In this document: positions 1,411 to 56,792 of the stretch, in pieces
Numbering within the stretch: the stretch's first letter is position 1
How the letters are laid out: each line of letters opens with the position of its first letter
DNA from: Candidatus Portnoybacteria bacterium
GTDB taxonomy: Bacteria; Patescibacteriota; Minisyncoccia; Portnoybacterales; GWB1-42-6
Assembly: GCA_016208745.1 (NCBI GenBank)
Contig: JACQXN010000022.1
Span: forward strand, 19,212 to 83,211
DNA length: 64,000 bases
Direction of reading: 5' to 3'
Translations under genes and position numbers: made by a program
Notes under the pieces: generated by a model
Seen by the model: only the letters and a program-made list of their open reading frames with translations
What the model was told of the DNA's origin: nothing
Databases searched by the model: none

Positions 1411-2013
1411 TTACTCTTCGTTAATTCTCGGTCTTTTTTCAATTTTCACTACTTTTTCCTCCTCCACCAATTCAAGTACTTTTTCTATTAAAGCCTTGGG
1501 GTCTGAATCATAAACTATTTTTCCTGAACCACGCTTGGCCCGCTCCACAATTTCTTCTATCATATCCGACATTCCGCCAGTACCAGTCAAAATGCCGATT
1601 GGTTTTTTATCCTCAAAAGCAATAGTAAATTCATTCAAAGTTCCCATGCGGCCGCAAATTATAATTACCGCATCCGAGGATCTGGTTAGCAAAAGATTCC
1701 GGCCCGCATATTCAAAGCCGGTATAAATAATCATATCAAAATAGTCAACCGGCAGGCGATAGCTTTTAACATGGGCGATTTCTGAAGCCGCCGGAGAGAG
1801 CCCAATGGAAATTCCGCCTTCTTCTTTGGCGCCAATAGCCGCCCAATAAGGAATGCCGGTGGTAGCACCAGTCATTAAAACTCCGTTGTGGCGGACGATT
1901 TCCCGTCCCACTTCTTTGGCTTTTTCAAGAGCTTCTGGCGCGCAACATTCGGTTTTGGCTGCGCCAGAAACGCAAATTTTGTATTTTAGATAGCTTTTTG
2001 CAACTTTTTCCAT
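1411..2013 (-). CDS. LOG family / TIGR00725 Rossmann-fold protein (putative nucleotide 5'-monophosphate nucleosidase)
   Basis: Motifs GATTGIPYWAA and ICGRMGTLNEF match the LOG-family GGxGTxxE signature; 200 aa. Confidence 0.7.
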   Translation of the reverse strand: MEKVAKSYLKYKICVSGAAKTECCAPEALEKAKEVGREIVRHNGVLMTGATTGIPYWAAIGAKEEGGISIGLSPAASEIAHVKSYRLPVDYFDMIIYTGFEYAGRNLLLTRSSDAVIIICGRMGTLNEFTIAFEDKKPIGILTGTGGMSDMIEEIVERAKRGSGKIVYDSDPKALIEKVLELVEEEKVVKIEKRPRINEE

Positions 2014-2054
2014 GATTTATACAGATAAACGCTGATATACAGATAGGATTTAAC

Positions 2055-2123
2055 TCCTCCCAGCCTCCTCTTTAAAAAAGAGGAAGAGCTCCCTCTCTTA
2101 TTTTAAGAGAGGGGTGGGGTGAG
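2055..2123. repeat. GC-rich hairpin element (family B copy), intergenic
   Basis: CCTCTTTaaaaaAGAGG and CCCTCTCTTAttttAAGAGAGGGG, then gtggggtgag. Confidence 0.6.
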
Positions 2124-2132
2124 TTAAATTTT

Positions 2133-2166
2133 ATCCGTATATCCGTAGAAAATCCGTATTCCGTAG
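2133..2166. repeat. Four direct repeats of ATCCGTA(T/G), possible operator-like site upstream of LOG gene
   Basis: atccgtat atccgtag aaa atccgtat tccgtag read directly; lies between the 2202 stop and the 2013 start. Confidence 0.45.
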
Positions 2167-2201
2167 CTATATTTTATCTTGACTCCCCTTAAAAGTCCAG
2201 C

Positions 2202-3599: not shown

Positions 3600-3767
3600 A
3601 AATATTTCTTCTTAGGGGATTCTTTAGTTTTTACGCAGGCAATCTGCTTCGCTTTCTGATACCTAAATTGGCTTGGCGTCCGATAGGCGGTTTTCCCTCG
3701 CCCTGCCCGAGCTGATGAATACTTTTTCATAGGTTAATTATAATATAGCTTAGAAAAAAGCTAAATA

Positions 3768-3796
3768 TTGACAAGACTATTTATTTATGAGATAAT
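3768..3796 (+). promoter_or_regulatory. Sigma70-like promoter TTGACA-N17-GATAAT
   Basis: TTGACA at 3768-3773, 17 nt spacer, GATAAT at 3791-3796. AGGAGG at 3833-3838 precedes ATG 3844. Confidence 0.5.
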
Positions 3797-3843
3797 AAAT
3801 ATACTGAATTTGGTTCCTTAAATAAATTCATCAGGAGGCGAGA

Positions 3844-4116
3844 ATGTCAGAAAATATAGAAGTTATAGAAGTGAAAAATTATACCGTGGAAATTAGAGTT
3901 TTAAGTATCCACTTTATCTTTGCATCGGCTGAAAATGGCAGAGTGCATTTGGTGGCTAGATTCAAGCCATACGCACAGATTTACGACCCAGCTTCTAACC
4001 GCGTCCCAAAACCTCTTTTCAAAGAAGCCTGCCGCATAGCTGCGGCGCGACTGAAATCTCAACAGAAAAGGTCCGTGCCCATAAAACACCTCCGCCAAAT
4101 TAAAATGTGGGGGTAG
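3844..4116 (+). CDS. Hypothetical small protein (90 aa)
   Basis: Consensus promoter plus strong AGGAGG RBS 5 nt upstream of ATG; no recognisable family. Confidence 0.45.
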   Translation: MSENIEVIEVKNYTVEIRVLSIHFIFASAENGRVHLVARFKPYAQIYDPASNRVPKPLFKEACRIAAARLKSQQKRSVPIKHLRQIKMWG

Positions 4117-4225
4117 CTGATATGTGATTCCTCCAAAAAAAACAAAACCCTTAGCAACCACGCTAGGGGTTATTTTTATCCTTATATTCTTTATTCGCCA
4201 TTGCAAAAATTTTGTTATAAAATCG

Positions 4226-4324
4226 CGGCGAGCTGAGTGTTTAAAAAATTACCTACGGAGGAGCAAAGCGACGAGTTTAGGAGGTAATTTTTAACAAAGC
4301 GAGTCCGATTTTATCAAAATTTTA
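4226..4324. repeat. ~100 nt structured repeat (family D copy 1) with 11 bp stem AAAAATTACCT/AGGTAATTTTT
   Basis: Near-identical architecture and flanks to 15258-15356; compensatory stem changes between copies. Confidence 0.6.
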
Positions 4325-4398
4325 TGCTTGGCGAGAGTTTTTTGCCTACTTTTTGTCGGTACAAAAAGTAGGTCCTTGCCGTCTTTAGATAAAGACGA

Positions 4399-5730
4399 TT
4401 AACGCATTCCTCTAAGTTCTTCTTTTACAATCTCGCTCTCCTGCCAAGGAATCTTTTTCCCATTTTCCACACACATCCAAACCTCTCCCCCTTTGCCAGT
4501 TAGAATAACCGCATCTCCGGCTTTCGCTAAACTCAATGCTTTTTTTATCGCTTCACGACGATCTAAAATTTCATAGACATTGGAAATTGGTAATTGGGTA
4601 TTGGAAATTCCAGATTTTATCTCCGATAAAATCTGGGTTGGGTCTTCATCATAAGGATCTTCATTGGTAATAATTACATAATCCGCGTATTCTCCAGCCA
4701 AGCGGCCTAAAGCCGCTCTTTTTGATTTATCGCGGCCGCCGCCCTGTGCGCCAAGCAAAGCAATAATTTTTCGCGGATTAAAAATTTTAAGCGCTTTGTA
4801 AGCCGATTCAAGAGAAGCCGGCTCGTGAGCATAATCAACGATAACTGTAAATGGCTGACCTTCATTAATTACTTCCAAACGGCCCGGCGCTGGTTTGGCA
4901 TTTTTTAGAGCCTCTTTTATTTTATCGACTCCGATTCCTTGCGAAATTGCTACGCAAATTGCCGCCGCAGCGTTATACATATTAACCTCGCCGATAAGAG
5001 GCGTAATAAAATTTTCACTGTTAAAATCGAATTCGGTTCTATCCGAGGCCAATTTAATGTTTGCAATTTGAAGCTTTCCAAATCCTCCCCAACCCTCCCT
5101 AAAGGGAGGGAGCGATTCCCCTCCTTTAGGAGGGGCTAGGGGAGATTTTAAAAAATACCCCATTTTTTTCGCCATTGGAATTTTCAAAAAATATTCTGTG
5201 CTCTCATCATCCAAATTATAAACTCCAATTCCGTTTTTCTTTTTCGCCACGGCTTCAAATAATTTTAATTTTGCTGCCCGATAATTTTCAAAACTGCCGT
5301 GGCGCTCAATGTGCTCGGGCGATAAATTAGTAAAAACCGCGACTGAATAATTAATGCCTTTGTGCCGATGCTGCAGAATTCCCTCTGAAGAAGTTTCAAT
5401 TACCGCGTATTTGCATCCTTCGCTAACCATTTGCCGCAATAATTTCTGCAATTTGAATCGGCCAAGCATAGTCTGCTTATAATCATTTATCCACTCCTTA
5501 TCCCTAATTCTAAAATTTACCGTTGTCGCCATGCCGGTTTTAAACCCCGCGCCCTGCAAAATCTGAGCGATTAAATTACAAGTCGTTGTTTTCCCTTTTG
5601 TCCCGGTCACGCCAATTACAATCAATTTCCGTGACGGAAAACCATACACAAGCGCGCCCAAATAAGCGAGCAACCAATGGTACCAACTAAAAATAAAATT
5701 CGGGATAAGTTTTTTTAGAATATTTTTCAT
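4399..5730 (-). CDS. Mur ligase family protein (MurE-like UDP-MurNAc-peptide ligase) with N-terminal membrane anchor
   Basis: GVTGTKGKTTT P-loop and DYAHEP motif of Mur ligases. N-terminus is a TM helix rather than a MurE N-domain. Carries an in-frame palindromic element at 5079-5149. Confidence 0.75.
   Translation of the reverse strand: MKNILKKLIPNFIFSWYHWLLAYLGALVYGFPSRKLIVIGVTGTKGKTTTCNLIAQILQGAGFKTGMATTVNFRIRDKEWINDYKQTMLGRFKLQKLLRQMVSEGCKYAVIETSSEGILQHRHKGINYSVAVFTNLSPEHIERHGSFENYRAAKLKLFEAVAKKKNGIGVYNLDDESTEYFLKIPMAKKMGYFLKSPLAPPKGGESLPPFREGWGGFGKLQIANIKLASDRTEFDFNSENFITPLIGEVNMYNAAAAICVAISQGIGVDKIKEALKNAKPAPGRLEVINEGQPFTVIVDYAHEPASLESAYKALKIFNPRKIIALLGAQGGGRDKSKRAALGRLAGEYADYVIITNEDPYDEDPTQILSEIKSGISNTQLPISNVYEILDRREAIKKALSLAKAGDAVILTGKGGEVWMCVENGKKIPWQESEIVKEELRGMR
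5079..5149. repeat. GC-rich nested-hairpin element (family A copy) inserted in-frame within Mur ligase CDS
   Basis: AAATCCTCCCC..CCCTCCCTAAAGGGAGGG..CCCCTCCTTTAGGAGGGG..GGGGAGATTTT. Translated in-frame on the minus strand as SPLAPPKGGESLPPFREGWGGF. Confidence 0.8.
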
Positions 5731-6068
5731 TCAAATTTTTTAATGAAAAACCATCTATATTTTTTTAATTTTCTTAAATACTCTAACTTGACCCCCGCCT
5801 CCCTCTTTTTCTTTGCATACTTATCGGTCATCTCTCCCCATTCCATTCTATTGGGGCTGCCAGATGATCTAAGTAATAGATTTTCGGGATTATATTCTGC
5901 CAAATCCCCGTTTATTAATTTTATATCTCTATCAATCTCGAATCCTTTTTGAATCCTGTTCCCAATATAAAAAATTACAGAAAGGATAAAAGAAATCCAT
6001 AAAATTGGGCTGATGCTTTTTAAAAAATCGAGCGTTGAATTGTAAAATTCAATAAAATAATCAATCAT
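5727..6068 (-). CDS. Hypothetical small membrane protein
   Basis: 113 aa with one TM helix; 4 nt overlap with the upstream Mur ligase start, suggesting translational coupling. Confidence 0.5.
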   Translation of the reverse strand: MIDYFIEFYNSTLDFLKSISPILWISFILSVIFYIGNRIQKGFEIDRDIKLINGDLAEYNPENLLLRSSGSPNRMEWGEMTDKYAKKKREAGVKLEYLRKLKKYRWFFIKKFE

Positions 6069-6105
6069 GCTTATTATTTATCGAGATAATTTGAATGAGA
6101 AATTT

Positions 6106-7194
6106 TCATCTTAAAATATTTCTTGTCGCTTTGTATATCTTGTACCACCATCTATTAAAAATGTAATTGTGCGTGCCGCAAAACGCGACTTCATACCCCC
6201 CAAAACCCTTCTTAAATCGGCTCACACCCGGCCATTTTTGTTCGTCATAACCCCAAAAATCATAATATTTACAGCCCTGATTTTTGACAAATTTTATCTG
6301 CTCCCATTGTAAAAGATGCGGCGCCATCAAACTGCGAGACTCGTTATCGGATCCGCCATGAATATAAATTGCTGTACTATTAAAAATATTTACTAAATTC
6401 GCGGCGATTGTTTTTCCTTGATATTGGGCTAAAAATAATAAATTCTCAAAATTTAACTCACCCTCGCTCTCTCTTAAAATAAGAGAGGGAATTACGTCTG
6501 TATTCTCTCCCCCTCTTAAATTAAGAGGGGGGTGGGGGGAGTTATTTCCAATTTGCAACTGCTTTCTATAATATTCTTTCTCAAAAATCTTTATCCCCTG
6601 TCTTTTTGCGGTCTGATTAAGCAAACTCCAAAATTCTTCAAAGTCTTTTTCGTTATACTCTGTCCTCCTTATTGTTACGCCTTTGCGCTGGGCAAGATTA
6701 ATATTATAACGTGTTTTCTCATGCATAGCCGCCAACAATTCTTCTTCACTTCTATCCAAATTTAAAATCAGAGTCCTGCTTGGCTGGATATCTTTTGTTT
6801 TTGAAAAACCCAACCCCCTTAAATCCTCCCTACTTATTTCAAAAGTCGGCTCGATTCTTAAAAATATCGCATTTTCTTGTTTAGCTAGATGTTTAACTTC
6901 CCGTAAAAAGCCCTGCATTCGCAGGAGATTCATCTCCGCCCGATGGCGGATCAGAATGGCATCTCGTGTTAATTCTGAAATTATTAGAGGGCCTCGCGGG
7001 CAATACAGATAGCTTTTCCCCAGCGGTAAATTATATTTAATTATTAAACCTGCCCAATCTTTGCCTTTCAGGAAAAAAGTTTTTCTCCCTAATGATTTCT
7101 GAAACTCCGCCCATTCTAAAGACTGCAAAAAACCGCCGCCTTGCTTCAAAACAAACTCATTCCAATCCTCTTTTCCGCCTTCATAAATAGCCAT
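6106..7194 (-). CDS. FemAB-family peptidoglycan interpeptide-bridge aminoacyltransferase
   Basis: FLQSLEWAEF N-terminal and LLQWEQIKFVKNQGCKYYDFWG C-terminal motifs typical of FemABX. Likely ATG at 7194 (track start 7239 is TTG). Contains an in-frame repeat at 6457-6541. Confidence 0.75.
   Translation of the reverse strand: MAIYEGGKEDWNEFVLKQGGGFLQSLEWAEFQKSLGRKTFFLKGKDWAGLIIKYNLPLGKSYLYCPRGPLIISELTRDAILIRHRAEMNLLRMQGFLREVKHLAKQENAIFLRIEPTFEISREDLRGLGFSKTKDIQPSRTLILNLDRSEEELLAAMHEKTRYNINLAQRKGVTIRRTEYNEKDFEEFWSLLNQTAKRQGIKIFEKEYYRKQLQIGNNSPHPPLNLRGGENTDVIPSLILRESEGELNFENLLFLAQYQGKTIAANLVNIFNSTAIYIHGGSDNESRSLMAPHLLQWEQIKFVKNQGCKYYDFWGYDEQKWPGVSRFKKGFGGYEVAFCGTHNYIFNRWWYKIYKATRNILR
6457..6541. 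repeat. GC-rich hairpin element (family B copy) inserted in-frame in FemAB CDS
   Basis: TCTCTCTTAAAATAAGAGAG and CCCCCTCTTAAATTAAGAGGGGGG hairpins. Encodes SPHPPLNLRGGENTDVIPSLILRESEGE inside the ORF. Confidence 0.75.
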
Positions 7195-7231
7195 ATTCTT
7201 AATGGCATTGTAGCGTAAAAAAATCCGAAAG

Positions 7232-7262
7232 ACAAACAAAAAAGGCAGTTATGACTGCCTTT
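7232..7262 (-). terminator. Rho-independent terminator for gene 7261-7671
   Basis: Hairpin AAGGCAGTtatgACTGCCTT followed on the minus strand by a T-run. Confidence 0.5.
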
Positions 7263-7671
7263 AATTTTGTAAAAACCATTCTGGAAATTTATCCAGCAAT
7301 ATGTCTTTGGCGGCATTCCAGCCGGCCATCTCCTCCATCCTTTCTTTCTTCTCTCGCGGAGTTAAATAAATAAATTCTTCTGGTGGTATATAATCGTATT
7401 CCGGCATCTCCCCTTCTAAAATCGCTATCCATAAACATTCATTCCAGCCCATCCGAAACCAGAAATCTGATGTGCTCACAAATGGCTTAAAAAGATGAAA
7501 AAACTTACTCACCCTTTTGCAAGCCCTTGCATATTCTTCTGTCTCTGGCGTCAAAAAATCCCTAATGCAATCTTTGGAATACTGGACTGTTTTTCTAATT
7601 TCCTCTTTTGAAAACCACGAGCCTGCCCGATGCGCTCCGGGTATCATCAATAGCAGCTCCCCCATCGCCAT
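7261..7671 (-). CDS. Hypothetical protein
   Basis: 136 aa ORF with no recognised family. Confidence 0.45.
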   Translation of the reverse strand: MAMGELLLMIPGAHRAGSWFSKEEIRKTVQYSKDCIRDFLTPETEEYARACKRVSKFFHLFKPFVSTSDFWFRMGWNECLWIAILEGEMPEYDYIPPEEFIYLTPREKKERMEEMAGWNAAKDILLDKFPEWFLQN

Positions 7672-7698
7672 CTCCTTTTTATTTAAATGAACATAAAA

Positions 7699-8277
7699 TT
7701 ACTTCCTCCCCAATCTCTTTAGGCATTCCTTAACCCGATTCTCAACTCCTTTAATTGTTTCTGGCAATTGCTGCAAAACTTCCCTGACCTCATAAACCCT
7801 ATAGCCTAAATTAACTAAAGCGTCAATCACTTCTATATCGCCGGCTACTCTCGATCCTTCTTTTCCTTGTGATAATTTTTTAACTTTTGTTTTTAATTCC
7901 AAAACTATCTTTTGCGCCATTTTTTTGCCAATGCCAGAAACCTTGCCTAAAATTGTTTCATCGCCTAAAACAATCGCCTCTTCCAAATCAGAAACTGAAG
8001 CTACGCCCAAAATATTCATCGCGGTTTTTGGCCCAATGCCCGGAATGGAAATCAAAAGCTCAAAAAGCTCCAATTCCTCAAAAGTCAAGAAACCAAACAA
8101 ATCCCAACTAGTTTCTTTAACTGAAAGAAAAGTAAAAACTTTGATACTTTGCCCGATTTGTGGTATTTTATTAAGGGTCTTTTCAGAAAAATGAACGCGA
8201 AAACCAATACCACCCGCTTCCATAATGGCGTATTTTTCCGATTTAAGAGAGATTTTGCCTTCTAAAGATGAGATCAT
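7699..8277 (-). CDS. ruvA: Holliday junction DNA helicase RuvA
   Basis: N-terminal OB-fold and helix-hairpin-helix motif (IPGIGPKTAMNIL); 192 aa. Confidence 0.85.
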   Translation of the reverse strand: MISSLEGKISLKSEKYAIMEAGGIGFRVHFSEKTLNKIPQIGQSIKVFTFLSVKETSWDLFGFLTFEELELFELLISIPGIGPKTAMNILGVASVSDLEEAIVLGDETILGKVSGIGKKMAQKIVLELKTKVKKLSQGKEGSRVAGDIEVIDALVNLGYRVYEVREVLQQLPETIKGVENRVKECLKRLGRK

Positions 8278-8288
8278 AATCTATTTTT

Positions 8289-8377
8289 TCCTCCTCCCCT
8301 CAGATGAGGGGAGGATTGAGGTGGGGTGCTGAAAAACACCACCACCCCCTGCCCCCTCCTCAACTGAGGAGGGGAAG
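8289..8377. repeat. GC-rich hairpin element (family B copy), intergenic
   Basis: CCTCCTCCCCTCAGATGAGGGGAGG..GAGGTGGGGTG..CCCTCCTCAACTGAGGAGGGG. Near-identical to 45667-45799 except for an internal ~50 nt indel. Confidence 0.7.
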
Positions 8378-8429
8378 AAAAAATTAAATAGTTTCTGCTT
8401 TCAGTATACCTCCCGCCCGCGCGAAATTC

Positions 8430-8460
8430 AAATAAAAAAGCCCGACAGTAAAGTCGGGCA
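8430..8460 (-). terminator. Rho-independent terminator for gene 8476-8745
   Basis: GCCCGACagtaaaGTCGGGC followed by T8 on the minus strand. Confidence 0.6.
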
Positions 8461-8475
8461 GGTTAAGTTAATTAA

Positions 8476-8745
8476 TCACCTACTTATATTTAAATCGTGG
8501 CCATATTCCAATTCCTCATTAATAATATCAAGAATTTCTTTATACCCTTTGTTTTGCGCGACTTCCCGAATTCTTTCAATCTGCTTAAGGACAAGTTCAG
8601 CCTCCCCTCTGACCAAACCAAATCTGTATTCAATGTCTTCTTGCGTGTTGTAGCCTCCCAAAACCATTAATCTTGCTTTATGAGGTGCGATGTGATGAAT
8701 CAACGCCTCGAGACAATTAATCAAATCTCCTTTTTCTCTTGCCAT
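8476..8745 (-). CDS. Hypothetical protein
   Basis: 89 aa ORF with a terminator downstream. Confidence 0.45.
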   Translation of the reverse strand: MAREKGDLINCLEALIHHIAPHKARLMVLGGYNTQEDIEYRFGLVRGEAELVLKQIERIREVAQNKGYKEILDIINEELEYGHDLNISR

Positions 8746-8842
8746 ATTACGTCTCCTCTGTGAGTTTTTAATGCCTGAAAATAATAAATAAAACGAACTA
8801 TCTAGCGAATTGAATTAATAATTGTATACCATAAACCAATTT

Positions 8843-10921
8843 ATGTCAACCTTCAAGCTCCGCGCACCATTTCGCCCAACAGGTGACCAGCCAGGCGCAA
8901 TAAATGCACTAGTTAAAAATTTAAAGACTGGCATTAAGCATCAGACGCTTTTGGGTGTGACAGGAAGCGGCAAAACTTTTACTATGGCCAATGTGATTGA
9001 GAAAAATCAAAAACCAACATTGGTTATTTCGCATAATAAAACTTTGGCGGCCCAGCTTTATCAGGAATTTAAAGAGTTTTTTCCGGAAAACGCCGTGCAT
9101 TTTTTCGTCTCCTATTATGACTACTACCAACCCGAAGCCTATATCCCCCAAACCGACACCTATATTGATAAAGACGTAAAAATCAACGATGAAATTGACC
9201 GCCTGCGCCACGCCGCCACGCAGGCGCTTTTAACCAGAAATGACACGATTGTTGTGGCTTCAGTTTCTTGCATTTATAATATCGGCTCGCCAGAAGAATA
9301 TCAGAATTTGAGTTTAGAGTTTAAGAAAGGCCAATTTTTGAGCCGCCAGAAATTTTTAAGGCATTTAATATCTCTGCAATACCAGCGATCGGATGTTGAT
9401 TTCAAAAGAGGCACATTTAAAGTCCGGGGCGATTTAATTGAGGTCTGGTCAGCCACTGGCGAACAAATATTAAAATTTGATTTTTTTGGCAATCAGATAG
9501 AAAAAATATCAGAAATCAATTTGCCCAATAATATTTTAAAAGCAGACAAGGAAAAAGAAGTTAAACAGGCAAGAGTTTTTCCGGCTAAATACTGGGTCGC
9601 GCCAGAGCAGAAATTGGGCTTAGCAATAAAAAATATTAAATTGGAGCTTGAAAACCAGCTGGAAAAATTAAAAAGACAGAATAAAATTCTTGACGCCGAA
9701 CGGCTTAAGCGGCGCACCAACTTTGACCTTGAAATAATCAAAGAAACCGGCTATTGTCACGGCGTTGAAAATTATTCACGGCATTTGGAATTTCGCAAAC
9801 CCGGCGAGCCGCCTTTCACCTTATTGGACTATTTTCCAAAAGACTATTTATTGATTATTGACGAATCGCACATGACTGTTCCCCAGCTTAACGGAATGTA
9901 TTTTGGCGACCGCTCGCGCAAAGAAACTTTAATTGAGTATGGCTTCCGCTTGCCTTCGGCGCTTGATAACCGACCGCTTAAATTTAATGAGTTCGAGAAA
10001 AAGGTTGATCAAGTTGTCTATACTTCGGCAACGCCCAGTAAGTACGAAATCGAGAAATCAAAGTCTGTCTGCACGAAAAAAAATCCTCCCCATCCCTCCT
10101 CCGTATCAAGTACGGGGCAAGCTCTAAAGGGAGGGAGTGATTCCCCTCCTTTAGGAGGGGCAAGGGGAGATTTTTGCATCATCCAGCAGCTCATCCGCCC
10201 CACTGGCCTGCTTGATCCGGCAATAGAAATCCGTTCAACTAAAAATCAAATTCCACATTTAATCAAGCAAATCAAAGAAACGGTCGAAAGTGGTGCCAGG
10301 GTTTTAGTAACAACAATTACCAAACGCCTCTCCGAAGACTTATCGGAATATTTGCAAGAGCAAGGAATAAAAGCCCAATATCTGCATTCTGAAATTAAAA
10401 CATTGGAACGACCGGAAATTTTGAAAGATTTAAGACTTGGCAAAATCGACGTTTTGGTTGGCATTAATCTTTTAAGAGAGGGGCTGGATTTACCAGAAGT
10501 TGGGCTGGTGGCAATTTTGGATGCTGACAAGGAAGGCTTTTTGCGCAATGACACAACGCTTATCCAAACAATGGGCCGCGCTTCTCGCCATCCGCAAGGC
10601 CGCGTTATTATGTATGCTGACAAGATTACCCAATCAATGAAACGCGCAATTTCTGAAACCAATCGCCGGCGCAAAATTCAGGAAAGCTATAATAAAAAAC
10701 ATAAAATCACGCCCCAGCCAATTAAAAAAGGCATCCGGCCAAGCATTGTAGAAATTACAAAAATGCCAAAAGGAGCGCTAAAAACTGAGAAAGAATATCT
10801 GGAAGAATACATTAAGGAGCTTGAGTTTAAAATGGAACTGGCTAATCGGAATTTGCAATTTGACGAAGCAATGAGACTGCAAGAACAAATTAATAAATTA
10901 AAAAGGGCGACGAAAAAATAA
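8843..10921 (+). CDS. uvrB: Excinuclease ABC subunit B (UvrB) with ~33 aa in-frame palindromic-element insertion
   Basis: GVTGSGKTF Walker A, helicase motifs, C-terminal UVR domain. Segment CTKKNPPHPSSVSSTGQALKGGSDSPPLGGARGDFC interrupts the conserved ELEKS...RPTGLLDP region. The track start at 8822 is TTG; the ATG at 8843 is more likely. Confidence 0.9.
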   Translation: MSTFKLRAPFRPTGDQPGAINALVKNLKTGIKHQTLLGVTGSGKTFTMANVIEKNQKPTLVISHNKTLAAQLYQEFKEFFPENAVHFFVSYYDYYQPEAYIPQTDTYIDKDVKINDEIDRLRHAATQALLTRNDTIVVASVSCIYNIGSPEEYQNLSLEFKKGQFLSRQKFLRHLISLQYQRSDVDFKRGTFKVRGDLIEVWSATGEQILKFDFFGNQIEKISEINLPNNILKADKEKEVKQARVFPAKYWVAPEQKLGLAIKNIKLELENQLEKLKRQNKILDAERLKRRTNFDLEIIKETGYCHGVENYSRHLEFRKPGEPPFTLLDYFPKDYLLIIDESHMTVPQLNGMYFGDRSRKETLIEYGFRLPSALDNRPLKFNEFEKKVDQVVYTSATPSKYEIEKSKSVCTKKNPPHPSSVSSTGQALKGGSDSPPLGGARGDFCIIQQLIRPTGLLDPAIEIRSTKNQIPHLIKQIKETVESGARVLVTTITKRLSEDLSEYLQEQGIKAQYLHSEIKTLERPEILKDLRLGKIDVLVGINLLREGLDLPEVGLVAILDADKEGFLRNDTTLIQTMGRASRHPQGRVIMYADKITQSMKRAISETNRRRKIQESYNKKHKITPQPIKKGIRPSIVEITKMPKGALKTEKEYLEEYIKELEFKMELANRNLQFDEAMRLQEQINKLKRATKK
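10081..10172. repeat. GC-rich nested-hairpin element (family A copy) in-frame in uvrB
   Basis: ~85 percent identical over 92 nt to 42961-43054, with the same outer AAATCCTCCCC/GGGGAGATTTT and two inner hairpins. Confidence 0.85.
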
Positions 10922-10929
10922 AGGGCATT

Positions 10930-11792
10930 CTTAACAAGTTGGAACAAGGAACAATGAATTCTTTAAGTATTCATGCGGGTTTTTAAAGATTTCAGGGTGG
11001 TTAAAATTTGCTTCAAATTCAGCCACGACATTTTCTAACTTGGAACCGGTAACGTGATGGTATTTTCTTCTGATAAAAGTCCTTAAATTACCAAATACTC
11101 CCTCTATCTCAGAAGTCAGCCCAAACTCCCATTTGGAATGAATGTCTCTTTGGTGAGTGACCGGCCAGGCATTCTTGATGCCCCGGTAATAGCCGGCTCC
11201 GTCCGTAAACAGCTTTGAGCCCGGCTCAACATGTCTGACAATGAATTGAGAGACGTTCTGTTTCTGAACATATTGTTTTGGGATGACTCGCAAAATTACC
11301 TTTTTGGCCAGCGTGTCTTTGGCTGCGATGACCGCTTTACCTCTAAAGAATGCTTCATCCATCTGAATCGTATCTTTTAGCGGAGAAAGCCAGTCAGGAT
11401 CAGGAATATTAAGCCTGAAGTTATCAAGCCAATTTCTAATTGTGACTTCGCTTAATTCTGTAATTTTAATTGTTTGGGTAATTGGCAAATGATTTAGCCA
11501 ACACCACAGAAGCGTGTAAAATGTTTCCCAGGGCAGCTTCATGTTGGACAGCCAGGTGTTGCTGGTTAGAGAGAAGGGTCTGCGGCATTTTTTACAGCGG
11601 TACCGATTCTCTGATTTGTAGACACTACGGCTTTTGCAACGCGGACAATGCAGATGAGTGCCAAAAAGAATACGCCTAACTATCTTTTTAATCTTAACTT
11701 CTGATGGTATTTGTTTTAAATGATACATAGGAGCAGATTTTTTAAAGATTTTCATCTTTATTGTATCATTGAATCTGTTCCAACTTCTTTAG
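10930..11792. mobile_element. IS1595-family insertion sequence (~860 bp) with 11 bp terminal inverted repeats
   Basis: AAGTTGGAACA at 10936-10946 and its exact reverse complement at 11776-11786 flank a transposase ORF. Confidence 0.65.
10931..11755 (-). CDS. IS1595-family (ISXO2-like) transposase
   Basis: N-terminal zinc ribbon CPRCKSRSVYKSENRYRCKKCRRPFS and a DDE region (IQMDEAFF...TDGAGYY); 274 aa. Confidence 0.75.
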   Translation of the reverse strand: MKIFKKSAPMYHLKQIPSEVKIKKIVRRILFGTHLHCPRCKSRSVYKSENRYRCKKCRRPFSLTSNTWLSNMKLPWETFYTLLWCWLNHLPITQTIKITELSEVTIRNWLDNFRLNIPDPDWLSPLKDTIQMDEAFFRGKAVIAAKDTLAKKVILRVIPKQYVQKQNVSQFIVRHVEPGSKLFTDGAGYYRGIKNAWPVTHQRDIHSKWEFGLTSEIEGVFGNLRTFIRRKYHHVTGSKLENVVAEFEANFNHPEIFKNPHEYLKNSLFLVPTC

Positions 11793-11863
11793 TATACCCA
11801 AATCATAATGTATGCCTAGCCGCGATGGTTTCGTGGCAAAATCACATCATTAGGGAGGCGGCA

Positions 11864-33842: not shown

Positions 33843-34946
33843 TTAGGTTTTAATTGGCATTATTACATACAGAAATCCATCTTCGCCAGAGGGCCTAATA
33901 ACAGATGGACTGGTTTCTGAATTTAATCCCAAGGAAACATTTTTTGTTGAGATATTGCTTAAGCCATCCAAAAAATAACGAAAGTTAAAGATAACTTCCA
34001 TTGGTTTACCTTTGACATCAGCTGGGATTTGGGATTTATTTTCACCCAAATCAGCATCTTGAGACAAAATATCAATCTTACCAGAATAAATAGACAGCTT
34101 AACGTCATTTATTTTACTGCTAAAAATACTGGCGATTTTAATATTATTAACAAACTCATCCTTAAGAAGGGTTGCCTGAGTTTCAAAGCTTTTGGGGATA
34201 ATTTGTTGATAATCAGGGTATTGGCCGTCAATAATCCTTGAAATCAATTGCACCTCATTAGTCTCAAATAAAACTTGGCTATCGCCCAAAATAAACCTAA
34301 CTTCATTATCTGGCTTTTCGGTTAATATCCTAATTAGTTCCTGAATGGTGCGCTGGGGAATAATTAAAGAGATTGGTTTTGTAATTAAATTATTTGTCTG
34401 ATAGATAGTTTTTTCGGCTAGTCTAAAGCTGTCGGTTGCCACAAATTTAATTGCTTCTTTGTCTATTTTAAAAAGGATTCCTGAAATTTCAGGCCTTGAT
34501 TCAGAAAGAGCAGCCGAACCAACAACTTGAGATAAATTATTTTTTAATATCTCGCCTTTTTTAAAAATTATAATCGGCTTTTCTTTTATTTTAGGAATTA
34601 AAGGAAAATCATCAGACGGCAGACCCTTGATGCTAGCTTTGTAATTTTCACACCTAACAAAAAGGGTGTTATCTTTTACCTCTAGTTCAATTTTTTTATT
34701 TGGTAAACTATTAATAAAACTGCTTAATATTTTAGCTGGACAAGTAATTGAACCTTGTTTTTCTATTTTTCCTGAAGTCCAAGTGTTAATACCAATTTCA
34801 AGATTAGTTGAAGAAATTTTTAATCGGCCACCCTCGGTTTCAAGTAATAAATTATTTAAAATCGGCAAAGTTAAATTACGGCCAACAATATTTTGGGTAA
34901 TATTTAAATTGGTTTTTAGATTTTCCTGAAGACAGATAATTTTCAT
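33843..34946 (-). CDS. dnaN: DNA polymerase III beta sliding clamp
   Basis: 367 aa, three-domain clamp pattern, immediately downstream of dnaA. Confidence 0.9.
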   Translation of the reverse strand: MKIICLQENLKTNLNITQNIVGRNLTLPILNNLLLETEGGRLKISSTNLEIGINTWTSGKIEKQGSITCPAKILSSFINSLPNKKIELEVKDNTLFVRCENYKASIKGLPSDDFPLIPKIKEKPIIIFKKGEILKNNLSQVVGSAALSESRPEISGILFKIDKEAIKFVATDSFRLAEKTIYQTNNLITKPISLIIPQRTIQELIRILTEKPDNEVRFILGDSQVLFETNEVQLISRIIDGQYPDYQQIIPKSFETQATLLKDEFVNNIKIASIFSSKINDVKLSIYSGKIDILSQDADLGENKSQIPADVKGKPMEVIFNFRYFLDGLSNISTKNVSLGLNSETSPSVIRPSGEDGFLYVIMPIKT

Positions 34947-35152: not shown

Positions 35153-36523
35153 TTAAATACTATAAAATCTTTCTTTAATTAAATTAATTTCTTGTTGTAG
35201 GGATTCGTTTTTTTGTAGCTCTCTATTTAATTTTTCACAAGCATACATAACAGTTGTATGATCTCTGCCGCCTAACTTCTCACCAATAAAAGGAAAGGAG
35301 CTTTTTAATTCCTCCCTGATTAAAAACATAGCTACTTGTCTTGGCCAGACTAACTCTTTTTTACGACAACGATTAATTAGGTGGCTAGTGTTTATATCGT
35401 AAAATTCTGATACTGCCTGAAGAATAACTTTATAACTTATTTTTTTAGAAGGAGGTGAGGTAATGCCGGTTAGTATTTTTGAAATTTGCTCCAATGACGG
35501 CAGGGAGCCGCTTAATTTAAGGGTAATCATTACTCTATTTAATGCTCCTTCAAGCTCCCTGATATTTTTTTGAATATTGGCAGCGATATAATTTAACACC
35601 TCATCGCTTATTTGAAGATTTTTTTCGTAACACTTTGCTTTTAATATAGCGATTCTTGATTCTAAATCAGGATAGCTGATATCAGCGATCATTCCCCCTT
35701 CAAATCGTGATTTTAATCTTTCTTCAAGCGTTGAGATAGCTTTGGGCGGCCGATCAGAACTTATAATTATCTGTTTATTGTTTTGATATAAGGCGTTAAA
35801 GGTATGGAAGAATTCTTCCTGAGTTTTTTCTTTGCCGGATAAAAACTGAACATCATCAATAATTAAGACATCGATTTTTCGGTAACTATTCTTAAATTCC
35901 TCCATTTGCCCATTATAAAGGGCAGCGACTAGCTCATTGGTAAATTTTTCAGAACTTGTATAGCAGATTTTTTTCTCGTTTTTAAAGTTTTTAACTATTT
36001 CGTTGCCAATTGCTTGGATAAGATGGGTTTTGCCCAGCCCCACCCCGCCATAAATAAATAAGGGGTTATAGAGCCGGCCAAGGTTTTTAGTTATTGCTTG
36101 GGCAGCCGCTTGGGCCAATTCATTGAACGAACCGACAATAAAATTATCAAAAGTGTATTTTGGATTAAGGTGGGTCTCTTTGTTGATCTCAAGCTCTTGG
36201 AAAGACTGATTGACAATTTCGGTTTCTTTCCGTCTGGGAGGAGTTGATCGTCCAGGCGTTGCCAGTTCTGGCAAGGAAATCGCGGCAATGACAAATTCAA
36301 CCTCTTTTACTTCAGGTAAAATATTTCGCAGAGCTCTTAATATTAATTTATTGTATTTATTCTCCAGCCACTCTTTAGAAAAAGCATTAGGGACGCCGAC
36401 TGTCGCGGCGCCTTCTCTGGTTTTTATTACATCGGTGTTCCGAAACCAAGTAATAAAGTTTGTCTTGGAAATATTGAGTTCAATTTCCCCTAAGGCAGCT
36501 TGCCAAAGCTCGTGGTTGGTCAT
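35153..36523 (-). CDS. dnaA: Chromosomal replication initiator DnaA
   Basis: GGVGLGKTHL Walker A, AAA+ motifs, C-terminal DnaA-box-binding HTH; 456 aa. Confidence 0.92.
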   Translation of the reverse strand: MTNHELWQAALGEIELNISKTNFITWFRNTDVIKTREGAATVGVPNAFSKEWLENKYNKLILRALRNILPEVKEVEFVIAAISLPELATPGRSTPPRRKETEIVNQSFQELEINKETHLNPKYTFDNFIVGSFNELAQAAAQAITKNLGRLYNPLFIYGGVGLGKTHLIQAIGNEIVKNFKNEKKICYTSSEKFTNELVAALYNGQMEEFKNSYRKIDVLIIDDVQFLSGKEKTQEEFFHTFNALYQNNKQIIISSDRPPKAISTLEERLKSRFEGGMIADISYPDLESRIAILKAKCYEKNLQISDEVLNYIAANIQKNIRELEGALNRVMITLKLSGSLPSLEQISKILTGITSPPSKKISYKVILQAVSEFYDINTSHLINRCRKKELVWPRQVAMFLIREELKSSFPFIGEKLGGRDHTTVMYACEKLNRELQKNESLQQEINLIKERFYSI

Positions 36524-43054: not shown

Positions 43055-43065
43055 TAGCTAGTCTC

Positions 43066-44169: not shown

Positions 44170-44213
44170 AGATATTTAATCGAGATTAGATCCGTTATTG
44201 AGCAGTAAAGTAA

Positions 44214-45167: not shown

Positions 45168-45186
45168 TTGTCTTATGATTTGAAAG

Positions 45187-45811: not shown

Positions 45812-47638
45812 TTACATCAGCGGGTTTTTTTGTTGAATAGTCTCTTGCTCGGCAAATTCCTGTTTGGCTTTTTCAATTTCTAAAAGTTGCGAAGGGTCAG
45901 AGGTAATAATCTGGTCTTCGGTGTAGGAGGCGACAACTTTTATCGCCACATGCTTTAGCCCGGCAAAAAATATTCCTTCGCCAACATTGCATTCCAAAAG
46001 CAGGTATTTTTCTTGCTCGGTTAAACTAAAGGTCTGTTTGATTATATCAATGGTGGTCGGCGACTGCTTCATTAAAAGCTGTATAGAGGAATTACTGACG
46101 ATTGGTTTGCCGTATTCGGAGCTCATAAAATCAGCAATATCTTGTGTAATAGTTGTTAGGGCGGTGAAATATTTGCGGCAACGCTTGGCAATATGCGTCA
46201 TAAACGAAGCCGCATCTACGTATTTCATCATTACCCAAGCCTCGTCAACCACTAAAAGTCTTTTTTTAAGCCTTTCTGTTCGCATTAGATTCCAAATGTA
46301 GTGTAGGACAATATACATTGCCATTGGCCGCAATTCCTCTTCCATATCGCGAATGCTAAAAGTTACCAATTTATTTTTGGCTGTAATATTGGTTGGCTGG
46401 TTAAAAAAGCCAGTATAAGAGCCAGTAACGTATTTTTCCAAACGCAGGGCAATGGGTTTGCCGCCCTCCATATTCTCTAAAACGGTTTTTAAATCGCCCA
46501 AAAGCGGCGGCGTCATTTTGGAAAAATCAACATTAGGTGTGATATCGCGGGAAGCATAAGTTTCATTAAGCGCTTTATCCAAAATCGCGTCTTCTTGCGG
46601 AGTTAGGCCTCCAAGCATTATTCGAAGCAAACCAACAAGATGTATAATATTGCTTCGTAAAATATCAGCTGGCTGGTCGTCTTTTTGTAAAACAGGTAAA
46701 TCAAACGGGTTAATGTTGTTGGCGGAATTAAGCGAGATTTTAATATATGAGCCGCCGACAGTCTCGGTTAAATATTGGTATTCGTTTTCCGGGTCAATAA
46801 CGATAACATCTGTGCCAAGCATCAGCGATCTTAGAATTTCCAGTTTAACAGCATAGCTTTTGCCAGCGCCAGATTTAGCAAAAATCACGGAGTTATAATT
46901 TTCCATGCTAAATCTGTCAAAGAGCACGAGGCTGTTATTGTGCCGGTTAATGCCATAAAGAATGCCTTTGTTATCCGACAAATCAGAAGAAACAAAAGGA
47001 AAGGTGCTTGATATTGGCGAGGTATTCATTGGAACGTTAATAAAAAGCTCGTCTTTGGCCAGAGGCAGAATAGCGTTAAAACCTGCTTCTTGTTGAAATG
47101 AGGCGGGTTTGGCATAGACCAGTTTTGCCTCCAGCAGTCCCCTTATTTCATTCTCTGTTTCATCAAGCTCCTTGGCTGAGTCGCCAAAAATAGCCAGATA
47201 AAGCCCAAAGCGGAAAAATCTTTCTGTCCCCTGTTGAAGGACGTCTCTTAAGCCCTCCATATCCTGCAAAGAGGTTTCCAAGATTGGGTCTCTGGCTTTG
47301 CCTTTCTCCTGCTCTATGGAAATTTGCGATTGAACATGCCCCACTCTTTTTCTTAATTGTTTTAAGATTAAACCGGTGTCAGCCGGGTGAATAAACATCG
47401 TAATATTTTTTTCTTTATCAAGCGAAAGAATAGGCGAGAGCCAATTGGTTAAAAGATGCCTTGGGTAGGTAAAAACAAAAAGAACGCGGCAAAATTTATT
47501 GCCAATTTCAAGATGGTTGACGCTAAGCTTAATAGCGGGCGGCGCGATTAATTCAGCCAAGCCAAGCGAGGTTTGGTTTGGTTGGTTTGCGGCCGAAGGT
47601 TCGGGGGATTTTTTTCTTGAGAATAAAGAGAAGGCCAT
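45812..47638 (-). CDS. VirB4/TrbE-family T4SS ATPase, C-terminal two-thirds (separate ORF)
   Basis: Walker A AKSGAGKSY, Walker B LLVVDEAW, WLSP motif, VirB4 C-terminal pattern; 608 aa. Confidence 0.8.
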   Translation of the reverse strand: MAFSLFSRKKSPEPSAANQPNQTSLGLAELIAPPAIKLSVNHLEIGNKFCRVLFVFTYPRHLLTNWLSPILSLDKEKNITMFIHPADTGLILKQLRKRVGHVQSQISIEQEKGKARDPILETSLQDMEGLRDVLQQGTERFFRFGLYLAIFGDSAKELDETENEIRGLLEAKLVYAKPASFQQEAGFNAILPLAKDELFINVPMNTSPISSTFPFVSSDLSDNKGILYGINRHNNSLVLFDRFSMENYNSVIFAKSGAGKSYAVKLEILRSLMLGTDVIVIDPENEYQYLTETVGGSYIKISLNSANNINPFDLPVLQKDDQPADILRSNIIHLVGLLRIMLGGLTPQEDAILDKALNETYASRDITPNVDFSKMTPPLLGDLKTVLENMEGGKPIALRLEKYVTGSYTGFFNQPTNITAKNKLVTFSIRDMEEELRPMAMYIVLHYIWNLMRTERLKKRLLVVDEAWVMMKYVDAASFMTHIAKRCRKYFTALTTITQDIADFMSSEYGKPIVSNSSIQLLMKQSPTTIDIIKQTFSLTEQEKYLLLECNVGEGIFFAGLKHVAIKVVASYTEDQIITSDPSQLLEIEKAKQEFAEQETIQQKNPLM

Positions 47639-48553: not shown

Positions 48554-48859
48554 TTAAATTCGATTTTTCTTCCAAATAAACATCCTTCCTTTAATTATAT
48601 AATTAATAGAAGCGCCAAGAATGGTAATAAACGGCCGGCCGTTGATTTTAAGAAATGCCAAAGCCAGCGCAAAAAGAGTCAAGGGAATAGAAGCTAGCAT
48701 AAAGAGCCAAAACTCGGCATATTGATACAAAAAGAAAAGGATTGCGCCGGTTCCGCCAAGATACCCAAACTGCTTTAAAGTCAGCGGCCCGACTATTTTG
48801 TCCTCTACTTCTAAAAATTGGGGGACATTGAATTGCATATAAAAAAGCTCAAAGCTCAA
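48554..48859 (-). CDS. Small two-TM protein (VirB3/PrgI-like candidate)
   Basis: 101 aa, two hydrophobic helices, positioned immediately upstream of VirB4 as is typical for VirB3. Confidence 0.4.
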   Translation of the reverse strand: MSFELFYMQFNVPQFLEVEDKIVGPLTLKQFGYLGGTGAILFFLYQYAEFWLFMLASIPLTLFALALAFLKINGRPFITILGASINYIIKGRMFIWKKNRI

Positions 48860-55796: not shown

Positions 55797-56792
55797 TTAT
55801 TGGTTATTTAAATTTAATTCCTTCGTTATCCTTGTCCAATCTTCAGCTCTCAATGTTTCTGCCCTTTGGCTTGGCGAAATACCAGCTTTTTTTAAGGCCT
55901 CTTCAACTATTTTGCGGTTAATTTTTAACCCTTTTGTTAAGTTACCGGCTAATTGTTTGCGGGGAGCAGAAAAACCGGCGCGGACGACTTTAAAAAAATC
56001 ACTTGCCCCCTCCTTTTTAAAGGAGGGCTGGGGTGGATTTTCTTTTTCTACAAAATCCCCCTTAATCCCCCTTTTATAAAGGGGGAGATGGCTTTTTGGT
56101 ATAATCTTAATTATCGCCGAATCGACTTTTGGTTGCGGCCAGAAACAGCTTTTGGAAACATAATGCAAAATTTTTGGCTGGGCGTAAAATTGCACCGAAA
56201 CCGCCAAGAGACTCATTTCGGGCGGCTCGGCACAAATTCTTTGGGCTACTTCTTTTTGTACCATTAAAATCATTTCGCTTGGCGGATTATTTGATTCCAG
56301 AAACTTTCTAATAACGGGCGAGGTTATATAGTAAGGAAGATTGGCGACGAGTTTGTAATTATATACTTTTGTCATCCCGGGCTTGAACCGGGATCCAGAC
56401 GTCGTTCCTGCGAAAGCAGGGATCTGCTCATTATCCTGGATTCCCGTTTTCACGGGAATGACAAAAAGCGAGGTAATTGGAAATTTCAAGGCATCGCCTT
56501 CTATAATCTCTGCATTTCCATAATCTCTTAGTGTCTCTTTTAAAATTTGAATCATATTTCTCCCTTTTTCAATTGCGATAACCCTTTTTGCTTTTTTGGC
56601 TAATTCTTGTGTTAGCGTGCCAAGGCCCGGTCCAATTTCCAAAATCGTGTCGGCTTTTTTTATTTGTGCGGCTTCAATAATCTTATCTAATATATTTTTG
56701 TCAATTAAAAAATTCTGACCAAGCTGTTTTAGGGGCGTGGTGCCATATTTTGATAGCAGATATTTAATTGTTTGCGCGGATAAAAGGTTCAT
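55797..56792 (-). CDS. rsmA: 16S rRNA (adenine1518/1519-N6)-dimethyltransferase RsmA/KsgA carrying two in-frame repeat-element insertions
   Basis: SAM motif ILEIGPGLGTLT, NLPYYITSP catalytic motif, PQPKVDSAII. At 331 aa it is ~50-60 aa longer than typical KsgA. Confidence 0.8.
   Translation of the reverse strand: MNLLSAQTIKYLLSKYGTTPLKQLGQNFLIDKNILDKIIEAAQIKKADTILEIGPGLGTLTQELAKKAKRVIAIEKGRNMIQILKETLRDYGNAEIIEGDALKFPITSLFVIPVKTGIQDNEQIPAFAGTTSGSRFKPGMTKVYNYKLVANLPYYITSPVIRKFLESNNPPSEMILMVQKEVAQRICAEPPEMSLLAVSVQFYAQPKILHYVSKSCFWPQPKVDSAIIKIIPKSHLPLYKRGIKGDFVEKENPPQPSFKKEGASDFFKVVRAGFSAPRKQLAGNLTKGLKINRKIVEEALKKAGISPSQRAETLRAEDWTRITKELNLNNQ
56006..56090. repeat. GC-rich hairpin element (family B copy) in-frame in rsmA
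   Basis: CCCCTCCTTTTTAAAGGAGGG..ctggggtggatttt..aaaatcccccttaatCCCCCTTTATAAAGGGGGagatgg. Encodes ...KGDFVEKENPPQPSFKKEGA... inside KsgA. Confidence 0.75.
56371..56462. repeat. Family C hairpin repeat in-frame in rsmA
   Basis: GTCATCCCGGGcttgaaCCGGGAT..CCTGCgaaaGCAGG..GGATTCCCGttttcaCGGGAATGAC. Encodes FPITSLFVIPVKTGIQDNEQIPAFAGTTSGSRFKPGMT between DALKF and KLVANLPYY. Confidence 0.75.

Follow-up and report, generated by a model that had tools for sequence, protein, structure and literature searches.

The window analysed here, a stretch of 64,000 nucleotides from a Candidatus Portnoybacteria genome (assembly GCA_016208745.1, contig JACQXN010000022.1, positions 19,212 to 83,211), contains a gene for a FemAB/FemX-type peptidoglycan-bridge transferase that carries a 91-nt palindromic element within its coding sequence, in frame and free of stop codons (positions 6454-6544 of the window). 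Copies of the same repeat occur at many loci in many phyla, the element is missing from many orthologous fem genes, and it falls into a loop of the protein that is occupied by diverse repeat-derived inserts in related bacteria. In all likelihood it is a non-autonomous palindromic repeat, similar in kind to Rickettsia palindromic elements (RPEs) and transposable elements of the miniature inverted-repeat type (MITEs), that is tolerated and read through in a permissive loop of the Fem protein.

The host gene and its product

The largest open reading frame (ORF) over the element lies on the minus strand at 6106..7194. An earlier interpretation made from the letters alone (the sequence-only reading) had assigned it to the FemAB family, which is borne out by a match to the Pfam model PF02388 (FemAB; E 1.4e-38, 133 bits at a cut-off of 24) and by 100% identity with the NCBI protein P0001, annotated as 'peptidoglycan bridge formation glycyltransferase FemA/FemB family protein' from Candidatus Portnoybacteria. 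The PF02388 match consists of three stretches and is broken at the insert. Homologues of the protein number 5035 at E<=1e-10. In an alignment of 31 homologues all family-invariant columns are kept in the window protein, namely F327 and K328 of the catalytic-site motif FKKGFGG and 35 others; we take the lysine of FKxGFGG to be the residue K305 of W. viridescens FemX. Judged from its sequence and from the structural model described below, the gene looks functional.

Architecture of the palindromic element

On the coding strand the element reads as an arm (TAACTCCCCCCACC), hairpin 1 (CCCCCTCTTAATTTAAGAGGGGG), a 21-nt spacer, hairpin 2 (CTCTCTTATTTTAAGAGAG) and a second arm (AGCGAGGGTGAGTTA). The outer arms, which start with TAACTC and end with GAGTTA, form an imperfect inverted pair. 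The two hairpins proposed earlier are present as written (TCTCTCTTAAAATAAGAGAG at 6468-6487 and CCCCCTCTTAAATTAAGAGGGGGG at 6509-6532), and each pattern was matched in none of 100 shuffles. The translation proposed for them, SPHPPLNLRGGENTDVIPSLILRESEGE, is exact and corresponds to 6457-6540. Their description as GC-rich holds only relative to a genome of ~40% GC (the window itself has a G+C content of ~40%), the stems proper having 38-55% GC. The weak third hairpin in the central spacer has a perfect counterpart, GGGAAT..ATTCCC, at the syntenic fem locus of a second assembly, GCA_043800535.1 (L001). Coordinates of these parts and of the other features treated here are collected in Table 1.

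Table 1. The fem gene, the parts of its palindromic element, and related modules and an insertion sequence in the window
Feature	Coordinates	Strand	Remarks
FemAB/FemX-type aminoacyl-tRNA-dependent peptidoglycan-bridge transferase gene	6106..7194	minus	intact, 362 aa, ATG at 7194, stop at 6106
Whole palindromic element	6454..6544	minus	91 nt, TAAC to GTTA; encodes residues ~218-247, NSPHPPLNLRGGENTDVIPSLILRESEGEL
Hairpin 1 (first in coding order)	6509..6531	.	CCCCCTCTTAAATTAAGAGGGGG, perfect 11-bp stem, encodes PPLNLRGG
Hairpin 2	6469..6487	.	CTCTCTTAAAATAAGAGAG, perfect 8-bp stem, encodes (I)PSLILRE
Central spacer with weak third hairpin	6488..6508	.	GAGAAT..ATTCCC on coding strand
Outer arm	6532..6544	.	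+ strand sequence GTGGGGGGAGTTA; imperfect pairing with 6454-6467
Outer arm	6454..6467	.	+ strand sequence TAACTCACCCTCGC
Sister copy of the same sub-family	2051..2126	+	76 nt, two hairpins, no central hairpin; intergenic, between SLOG-family gene and beta-CASP RNase gene
Related module, AAATCC...GGAGATTT sub-family	5080..5148	minus	69 nt; in frame in Mur ligase (4399..5730) as SPLAPPKGGESLPPFREGWGGFG
Related module, nested hairpin	10081..10173	+	93 nt; in frame in UvrB (8822..10921) as NPPHPSSVSSTGQALKGGSDSPPLGGARGDF
Two related modules	55993..56086	minus	in frame in KsgA/RsmA-type rRNA dimethylase (55797..56792), ...LPLYKRGIKGDFVEKENPPQPSFKKEG...
IS1595-family insertion sequence	10923-11799	transposase minus	directly after uvrB, 24-nt inverted repeats GGGCATTCTTAACAAGTTGGAACA

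As a single strand, 6454-6544 folds into a four-way junction, with a free energy of -38.3 kcal/mol for the coding strand and -46.9 kcal/mol for the + strand. The corresponding z-scores are -5.4 and -6.1, and no shuffled sequence folds equally well. Together with the failure of 100 shuffles to reproduce either hairpin, these scores rule out coincidence, as would have to be assumed if the segment were a native, lineage-specific linker that is palindromic by accident. The related idea of an assembly artefact draws on the fact that mis-assembly at repeats is possible in metagenome-assembled genomes (MAGs). The element recurs, however, at an identical codon in the independent assembly GCA_043800535.1, the protein aligns colinearly with its homologues on both sides of the insert, and a sequencing read exceeds the repeat in length. 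Neither the linker nor the artefact is a credible explanation in our view.

A hairpin of this type has just one TAA-free reading frame per strand, giving PPLNLRGG and PSLILRE, and the spacer holds hairpins 1 and 2 in a common frame. The peptide encoded by the insert includes NSPHPPLNLR and GGENTDVIPSLILR.

An antisense ORF of 77 aa (6532..6765, + strand) begins within the element and is probably due to chance. The same probably applies to a 10/12 sigma-70-like match at 6545-6572 (+ strand), situated just outside the element and pointing away from it. Outward promoters carried by MITEs are known; the two weak antisense promoter-like matches at the element stay at chance level, with 7 found versus 4.5 expected.

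Absence from orthologues and a hotspot for insertion

The fem gene was compared between syntenic loci in which RuvA, Fem, a small ORF and Mur ligase follow one another, i.e. L001 (Fem protein P0003), L002 (P0002), L003 (P0012), L004 (P0010) and L005 (P0004). The site is empty in L003 and L004, where merely QNSSDKF and QINSENF, respectively, are found. L001 carries the same element at the identical Fem codon, in L002 a different, nested element comes after hairpin 1, and L005 contains yet another element at the same codon. Many members of the 31-homologue alignment lack the segment between EYYRKQLQI and NFENLLFLA, and it is wholly missing from the repeat-free homologues. Repeat-free homologues with an equivalent conserved segment were looked for and none was found, so that the insertion proposed by the sequence-only reading stands. 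The alignments thus support the view that 6454-6544 is an in-frame insertion of a repeated palindrome and does not represent a native conserved segment of Fem proteins.

The wider family tells more about the site. Between the anchors YYxK and HG, both of which could be located in 113 homologues, the distance is 36-40 aa in the majority and 69 in the window protein. In ~30 of the 113 it amounts to 47-86 aa, caused by diverse Pro/Gly/Arg-rich, repeat-derived inserts in the same loop. The Fem loop in homologues from the Candidate Phyla Radiation (CPR) is a hotspot colonised by many repeat families. When metagenomes were scanned with the conserved Fem sequence upstream of the insert, only empty alleles of the P0012 type and three chance matches came up, and no filled/empty pair from close strains was obtained.

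Position of the insert in the Fem fold

An alignment-based AlphaFold2 model of the window protein (predicted local distance difference test, pLDDT, 84.6; predicted template modelling score 0.81) has a sole segment below pLDDT 50, residues 218-245 (pLDDT 27-31), located between the helix 206-214 and the strand 250-258. Foldseek relates the model to S. aureus FemX (6snr; E 2.8e-21, template modelling score 0.73) as well as to W. viridescens FemX (1ne9) and FemA (1lrz), and model and search together identify the two-GNAT-domain FemX fold. The structural mapping called for by the sequence-only reading therefore places the insert in an otherwise confident FemX fold, where it probably forms a disordered surface loop.

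In phmmer searches against sequences of the Protein Data Bank, residues 209/260 of the window protein align to 213/301 of 6snr (S. aureus FemX), and its residues 212/253 to 219/230 of W. viridescens FemX, an armless enzyme. Because these structure-sequence alignments flank the coiled-coil arm of the staphylococcal Fem proteins, the insert occupies the site of that arm. Staphylococcal FemA, FemB and FemX (1lrz, 6snr) likewise have an extra segment in the domain-2 loop, between the YY(R/K)K helix and the next beta-strand. Their arm folds as an antiparallel coiled coil, with ~60-90 residues of ordinary sequence, whereas the present case concerns a 29-residue, repeat-derived loop that is predicted to be disordered. 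Since the staphylococcal arm sits there, this domain-2 loop evidently tolerates large insertions. The arm has been proposed to contact tRNA, and by analogy an influence of the insert on substrate handling by the Fem enzyme is conceivable.

These observations can be put together as follows. A nested modular palindrome, made up of TAAC(T/G)CCCCC / GGG(G/T)GAGTTA arms around one to three C-rich/G-rich hairpins of the CCCTCTTAAwTTAAGAGGG type, would have landed within fem in its single stop-free frame, presumably when a mobile element transposed or recombined. The net insert is divisible by three (~87 nt, 29 codons) and would be transcribed and translated as a Pro/Gly/Arg-rich loop, leaving the two-domain FemX fold and the conserved motifs intact. 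The segment is probably translated and not removed. The insert may be neutral or nearly neutral for the enzyme, and would persist owing to the structural permissiveness of the loop.

Removal of the segment would be expected if it were an intervening sequence such as a group I or group II intron, an intein or a translational bypass element. CPR bacteria are indeed known to have introns in genes for rRNA and tRNA (PMC9698310, PMC13011429), strong folding is a feature of the element, and a relative (L003) possesses an intein in UvrB. On the other hand, Rfam detects no intron family in the window, 91 nt or 29 aa are too short for an intron or an intein, and a Hint motif is lacking. Furthermore, an excised segment would require neither the use of the stop-free frame nor the predominance of frame-preserving lengths that are seen in the repeat family (see below). 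We have therefore rejected group I/II introns and inteins, and consider an intervening sequence of any sort extremely unlikely.

A repeat family distributed over many phyla

The distribution of the repeat was explored by a pattern scan with CTCTTAWWTTAAGAGRGNNNNNGGGKGAGTTA, comprising hairpin and arm, with exact matching and one genome per species. At least 118 loci matched, while the chance expectation is about 0.001 (an estimate from 23 fixed and 4 two-fold positions versus 1.2e12 positions). Hosts among the listed matches belong to five or more CPR phyla, including Gottesman-, Doudna-, Zambryski-, Portnoy- and Saccharibacteria, and outside the CPR to Deltaproteobacteria, Nitrospirae/Thermodesulfovibrionia, Thermodesulfobacteriota and KSB1; MAGs labelled Methanoregula, Rhodobacterales and Pseudomonadales are also among them. 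The basic unit is (A/T)TAAC(G/T)CCCCC-n3-4-CCCCCTCTTAAwTTAAGAGGGGG-n3-4-GGGGGAGTTA(T/A), and is most often 49 nt long. Overall the elements measure 43-139 nt and have imperfect arms of 10-14 nt, TAAC(T/G)CCCCC / GGG(G/T)GAGTTA. Versions with two or three hairpins, as in fem, are found in CPR genomes.

Of the 96 complete copies among the listed matches, 35 reside in long ORFs, and copies often follow just after gene ends. The length equals 1 mod 3 in 24 of the 35 in-ORF copies, a skew towards preservation of the frame, and nearly all of 20 translated in-ORF copies read NN(S/A)PxPPLxLRGG..GEL. The host proteins identified by Pfam are RecG, LeuRS, DnaG, Mur ligase, YchF, ArgRS, SecA, another class-I synthetase and a YggS-like protein. 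RecG carries its copy at one shared site in a MAG of Gottesmanbacteria and in one of Portnoybacteria.

One stem position left free by the pattern covaries strongly (C-G 101, T-A 17, T.G 6, C.A 3; Fisher p 2e-13), which indicates, at the sequence level, that palindromy is maintained by compensatory change. The commonest variant, 44 of the 96 copies (L006-L123), has a conserved G/A mismatch between the outer arms, TAACGCCCCC versus GGGGGAGTTA, and the palindrome therefore has a defined polarity.

Two further arrangements were noticed among the matches. In L060, L064, L121, L015 and L017 (Deltaproteobacteria / Thermodesulfobacteriota) the 49-nt module lies within a longer palindrome, CCAAATCCCAAGC...ATAAC-module-GTTAT...GTTTGGGATTTGG, which suggests composite elements built on the same core. 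A 2634-aa ORF from Zambryskibacteria (L067) contains, at about residue 1263, an in-frame 91-nt two-hairpin module just past the motif HCVTGDTRL; this resembles the N-terminus of an intein, and the module may be a repeat inside an intein of a giant surface protein.

Within the window itself, the sequence-only reading had counted the fem hairpins to a 'family B' of modules. One further copy exists in the window, the intergenic sister copy at 2051-2126, and there are no others; hairpin 2 of the fem element is 90% identical to the copy at 2090-2130. The sister copy is missing from the syntenic intergenic region of L001, and the repeat family has therefore been active since the two lineages split. 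The fem gene had moreover been called the third essential cell-wall or DNA-repair gene to host an element. The genes for Mur ligase and UvrB do contain related modules, which belong to another sub-family with AAATCC...GGAGATTT arms, and the same is true of a gene for a KsgA/RsmA-type methyltransferase, the essential character of these genes being presumed. In alignments of Mur ligase and UvrB the modules of the window lie at indel hotspots where relatives have different elements. Further related C-rich/G-rich modules are situated in several intergenic gaps of the window.

Conservation beyond that of the host gene and the mode of spread

Several results weigh against a simple history of insertion and read-through. 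The elements of the window and of L001 are 91% identical, while the DNA of the fem gene is only 66% identical, and the element is in fact the best-conserved stretch of the gene in this comparison. Among codons specifying the same residue, 26/27 are identical inside the element versus 102/194 outside (p 4e-6), and third positions agree in 29/32 codons inside versus 149/314 (47%) outside (p 1e-6). A decaying selfish insertion should diverge along with its host gene. In a bootstrapped neighbour-joining tree of 279 columns, from which the insert columns were left out, the grouping of P0001 with P0003 has 0% bootstrap support, and P0003 falls into a 93.5% clade with the empty-site proteins P0013 and P0016 and with homologues bearing other elements. 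Target-site duplications were searched in 92 copies (k=2-8, any offset) and gave no direct-repeat signal above shuffled expectation, the best case being k=2 with 12 versus 5.7 expected; palindromic TA/TAA inside the termini could mask one. Finally, Pfam scans of 46 window ORFs revealed neither an autonomous partner nor a transposase whose ends match. The excess conservation of the element and its presence in non-sister hosts therefore render 'insert once, then drift' incomplete. Possible causes of the excess conservation are nucleotide-level selection on the hairpins, gene conversion from other copies, and repeated insertion at a preferred site.

The first of these possibilities would make the segment a domesticated nucleic-acid element, in which the hairpins are under purifying selection for binding of a factor, for mRNA stability or ribosome pausing between the halves of domain 2, or as a recombination signal, and in which the peptide is a by-product. 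The third-position values given above speak for it, as do the hairpin codons, which are identical in 16/16 cases between the window and L001 (8 per hairpin), and the location of the differences, which avoid the stems and are confined to spacer and arms. The hairpin sequence itself, beyond its pairing, is conserved across phyla, the stems covary strongly, and the conserved arm mismatch lends polarity. The cross-phylum conservation is, however, partly built in by the exact-match scan, and gene conversion among dispersed copies gives the same pattern without any function. Many orthologues lack an element altogether, sites turn over between relatives, as seen for Mur ligase, UvrB and the intergenic copy, and neither a terminator-like tail nor an Rfam family is associated with the element. 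Domestication of the hairpins is on this balance quite improbable.

Independent re-invasion of the exact Fem codon in different lineages, or gene conversion there through homologous recombination between co-occurring relatives, would imply that the shared element is young and the genes are old. The element junctions of P0001 and P0003 are identical even though the proteins are not sisters (93.5% clade), an argument drawn from the neighbour-joining tree of only 279 columns. The upstream flank GAATATTATAGAAAGCAGTTG is nucleotide-identical even in empty alleles, which could support recombination, and the RecG site shared by Gottesmanbacteria and Portnoybacteria MAGs as well as the activity of the element after the split of the lineages fit in. 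Yet the central spacer differs at 5/7 positions between the window and L001 with identical hairpins, which would not be expected had the whole element been copied recently; no second 91-nt copy of the fem architecture was seen in the 64-kb window or in 20 kb of L001, and the downstream Fem flank is not conserved. We regard re-invasion or conversion as unlikely.

A broader proposal is that of a cross-phylum, possibly cross-domain structured nucleic-acid element, the hairpins of which would be maintained, even within an essential gene, by a DNA or RNA function or by site-specific homing or conversion that time and again restores the element at one codon of Fem, and of RecG. We consider this unlikely. 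If it were, nucleotide-level maintenance of hairpins in genes with saturated synonymous divergence would be a mode of persistence that is undescribed for RPEs or MITEs. For the reading that we favour, a non-autonomous palindromic repeat tolerated in a permissive Fem loop, some candidates for the mobilising agent can be commented on. The only transposase of the window (10931..11755) belongs to the IS1595-family insertion sequence; this was rejected as parent element because its inverted repeats (GGGCATTCTTAAC...) are unlike the module ends. An ORF located between two copies in L040 bears no likeness to a transposase by eye, a judgement made without a scan against a family library. A scan of viral contigs gave a single match and thus no support for a phage vector. 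The flanks of the copies weakly extend the palindrome, the left one being rich in A and the right one in T.

Known types of hairpin sites were also considered, namely integron attC sites, repetitive extragenic palindromic (REP) sequences and bacterial interspersed mosaic elements (BIMEs) served by REP-associated tyrosine transposases (RAYTs), and intrinsic terminators. The termini ...AAC / GTT... recall the R''/R' boxes of attC, the copy at 2051-2126 even fits ATTTAAC / GTTAAAT, and many copies lie just after gene ends. The host taxa overlap groups that carry chromosomal integrons. Most copies, however, have the modal ends ATAAC...GTTAT, which do not fit RYYYAAC/GTTRRRY, copies reside inside housekeeping ORFs, and no integrase was found among the 46 window ORFs scanned; attC was rejected on these grounds. 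An intrinsic terminator was discarded since a T-tail is lacking and no terminator-like site was detected at 6454-6544 on either strand. REP/BIME elements were dismissed in view of the TAAC/GTTA ends, the lack of a GTAG/CGTC head (PMC3733652) and the copies inside ORFs. It is very unlikely that the element represents any of these sites. A search of the whole window with Rfam 15 at gathering thresholds returned 0 matches.

Other features of the window

Hairpin modules are clustered in 2000-10200 and 43000-56100 and nearly absent from 11000-42900, ~31 kb around the putative origin, a distribution that may be due to chance. The AT-rich gap between the minus-strand genes dnaA (35153..36523) and dnaN (33843..34946) extends over 34947-35152 and is crowded with AT palindromes (35029-35127). 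The block 34001-36000 has 30% G+C, the cumulative GC-skew minimum coincides with the dnaA-dnaN gap, and the region is probably the replication origin. ARAGORN found 0 tRNA genes in the 64-kb window.

A third module family occurs at 8292-8374 and 45669-45794, in which a GGTGGGGTG...CACCACCCC stem is framed by two hairpins, TCCTCCCCTCAGATGAGGGGAGGA and CCCCTCCTCAnCTGAGGAGGGG; the copy at 45669-45794 has an extra central insert of ~45 nt. Genes for a TraG/VirB4-like ATPase (45812..47638) and a PrgI-family protein (48554..48859) suggest a type IV secretion-like cluster at 45143-48990, and hairpin modules are present in nearly all gaps around it (45143, 45669-45794, 47682-47765 and 48912-48980). 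The motif ATTCCCG-n6-CGGGAAT occurs in two copies, 48475-48494 and 56440-56459, and is similar in form to the dRS3 repeats of Neisseria (ATTCCC-n8-GGGAAT).

With respect to UvrB, the related Portnoybacteria contig L003 encodes, at 1628-5251, a UvrB of 1207 aa with an intein (Intein_splicing and LAGLIDADG_3). The window UvrB has a palindromic module instead, at a site different from that of the L003 intein.

Comparison with known repeat systems

According to PMC10969869, RPEs (Ogata et al. 2000 Science 290:347) measure ~100-150 bp, form ten families and are restricted to Rickettsia. As portrayed there, they resemble the element described here in being short multi-copy palindromes that lie in frame in unrelated housekeeping genes and are read through as an extra peptide, that are missing from orthologues and occupy fold-compatible sites, and for which a transposase is not known (PMC10969869). 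The fem element shares the features of a palindrome present at many loci, in frame in unrelated ORFs, absent from orthologues and positioned in a loop. It differs from RPEs in that the module has 49-130 nt, is modular with one to three hairpins and fixed arms, and encodes the coil NNSPxPPLxLRGG..GEL, in that it is found in many CPR phyla, Deltaproteobacteria, Nitrospirae, KSB1 and a methanogen MAG, and in that orthologous fem copies are more conserved than their host gene. Membership in RPE-1 to RPE-10 was rejected because the hosts are CPR and other phyla and not Rickettsiales, a separation that is based on hosts.

With MITEs such as the Correia elements of Neisseria or the enterobacterial repetitive intergenic consensus (ERIC)/intergenic repeat unit (IRU) sequences of enterobacteria, the fem-type module has in common its small size, the terminal inverted repeats, the hairpin formed by the whole element, and a distribution of mostly intergenic copies by gene ends with occasional in-frame intragenic ones (PMC10969869, PMC3184786). 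A target-site duplication was not detected in 92 copies, and no parent insertion sequence with the same ends was found among the 46 window ORFs scanned. The host range goes far beyond that of any described MITE family. The REP/BIME sequences of RAYT transposases are likewise G+C-rich, imperfect, genome-wide palindromes, often paired and presumed to form single-strand hairpins (PMC3733652, PMC12306157). They are, in contrast, extragenic and have a GTAG or CGTC head, whereas fem-type modules have TAAC/GTTA ends and occur inside ORFs.

The full-text literature searched offers RPEs and intragenic MITEs as precedents, besides the introns of CPR rRNA and tRNA genes. Neither the repeat family nor palindromic repeats lying in frame in CPR proteins were found described there, an absence that is no proof of novelty, and the sequence strings of the element had no relevant occurrence in the literature text searched. 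If our interpretation is correct, proteins of CPR bacteria (Patescibacteria), organisms with tiny genomes and mostly essential genes, are remodelled by palindromic repeats in the manner known from Rickettsia. Annotation and alignment of CPR proteins would be affected, as spurious 'low-complexity' loops such as PPLxLRGG would be repeat-derived, and the modules would mark structurally permissive loops in FemX, RecG, SecA and tRNA synthetases. The question is thereby raised as to what mobilises or preserves a palindrome of 49-91 nt with a constant sequence in host genes that have reached saturating divergence. Relative to the RPE and MITE precedents, it is this conservation beyond the host gene, together with the breadth of occurrence across phyla, that stands out.

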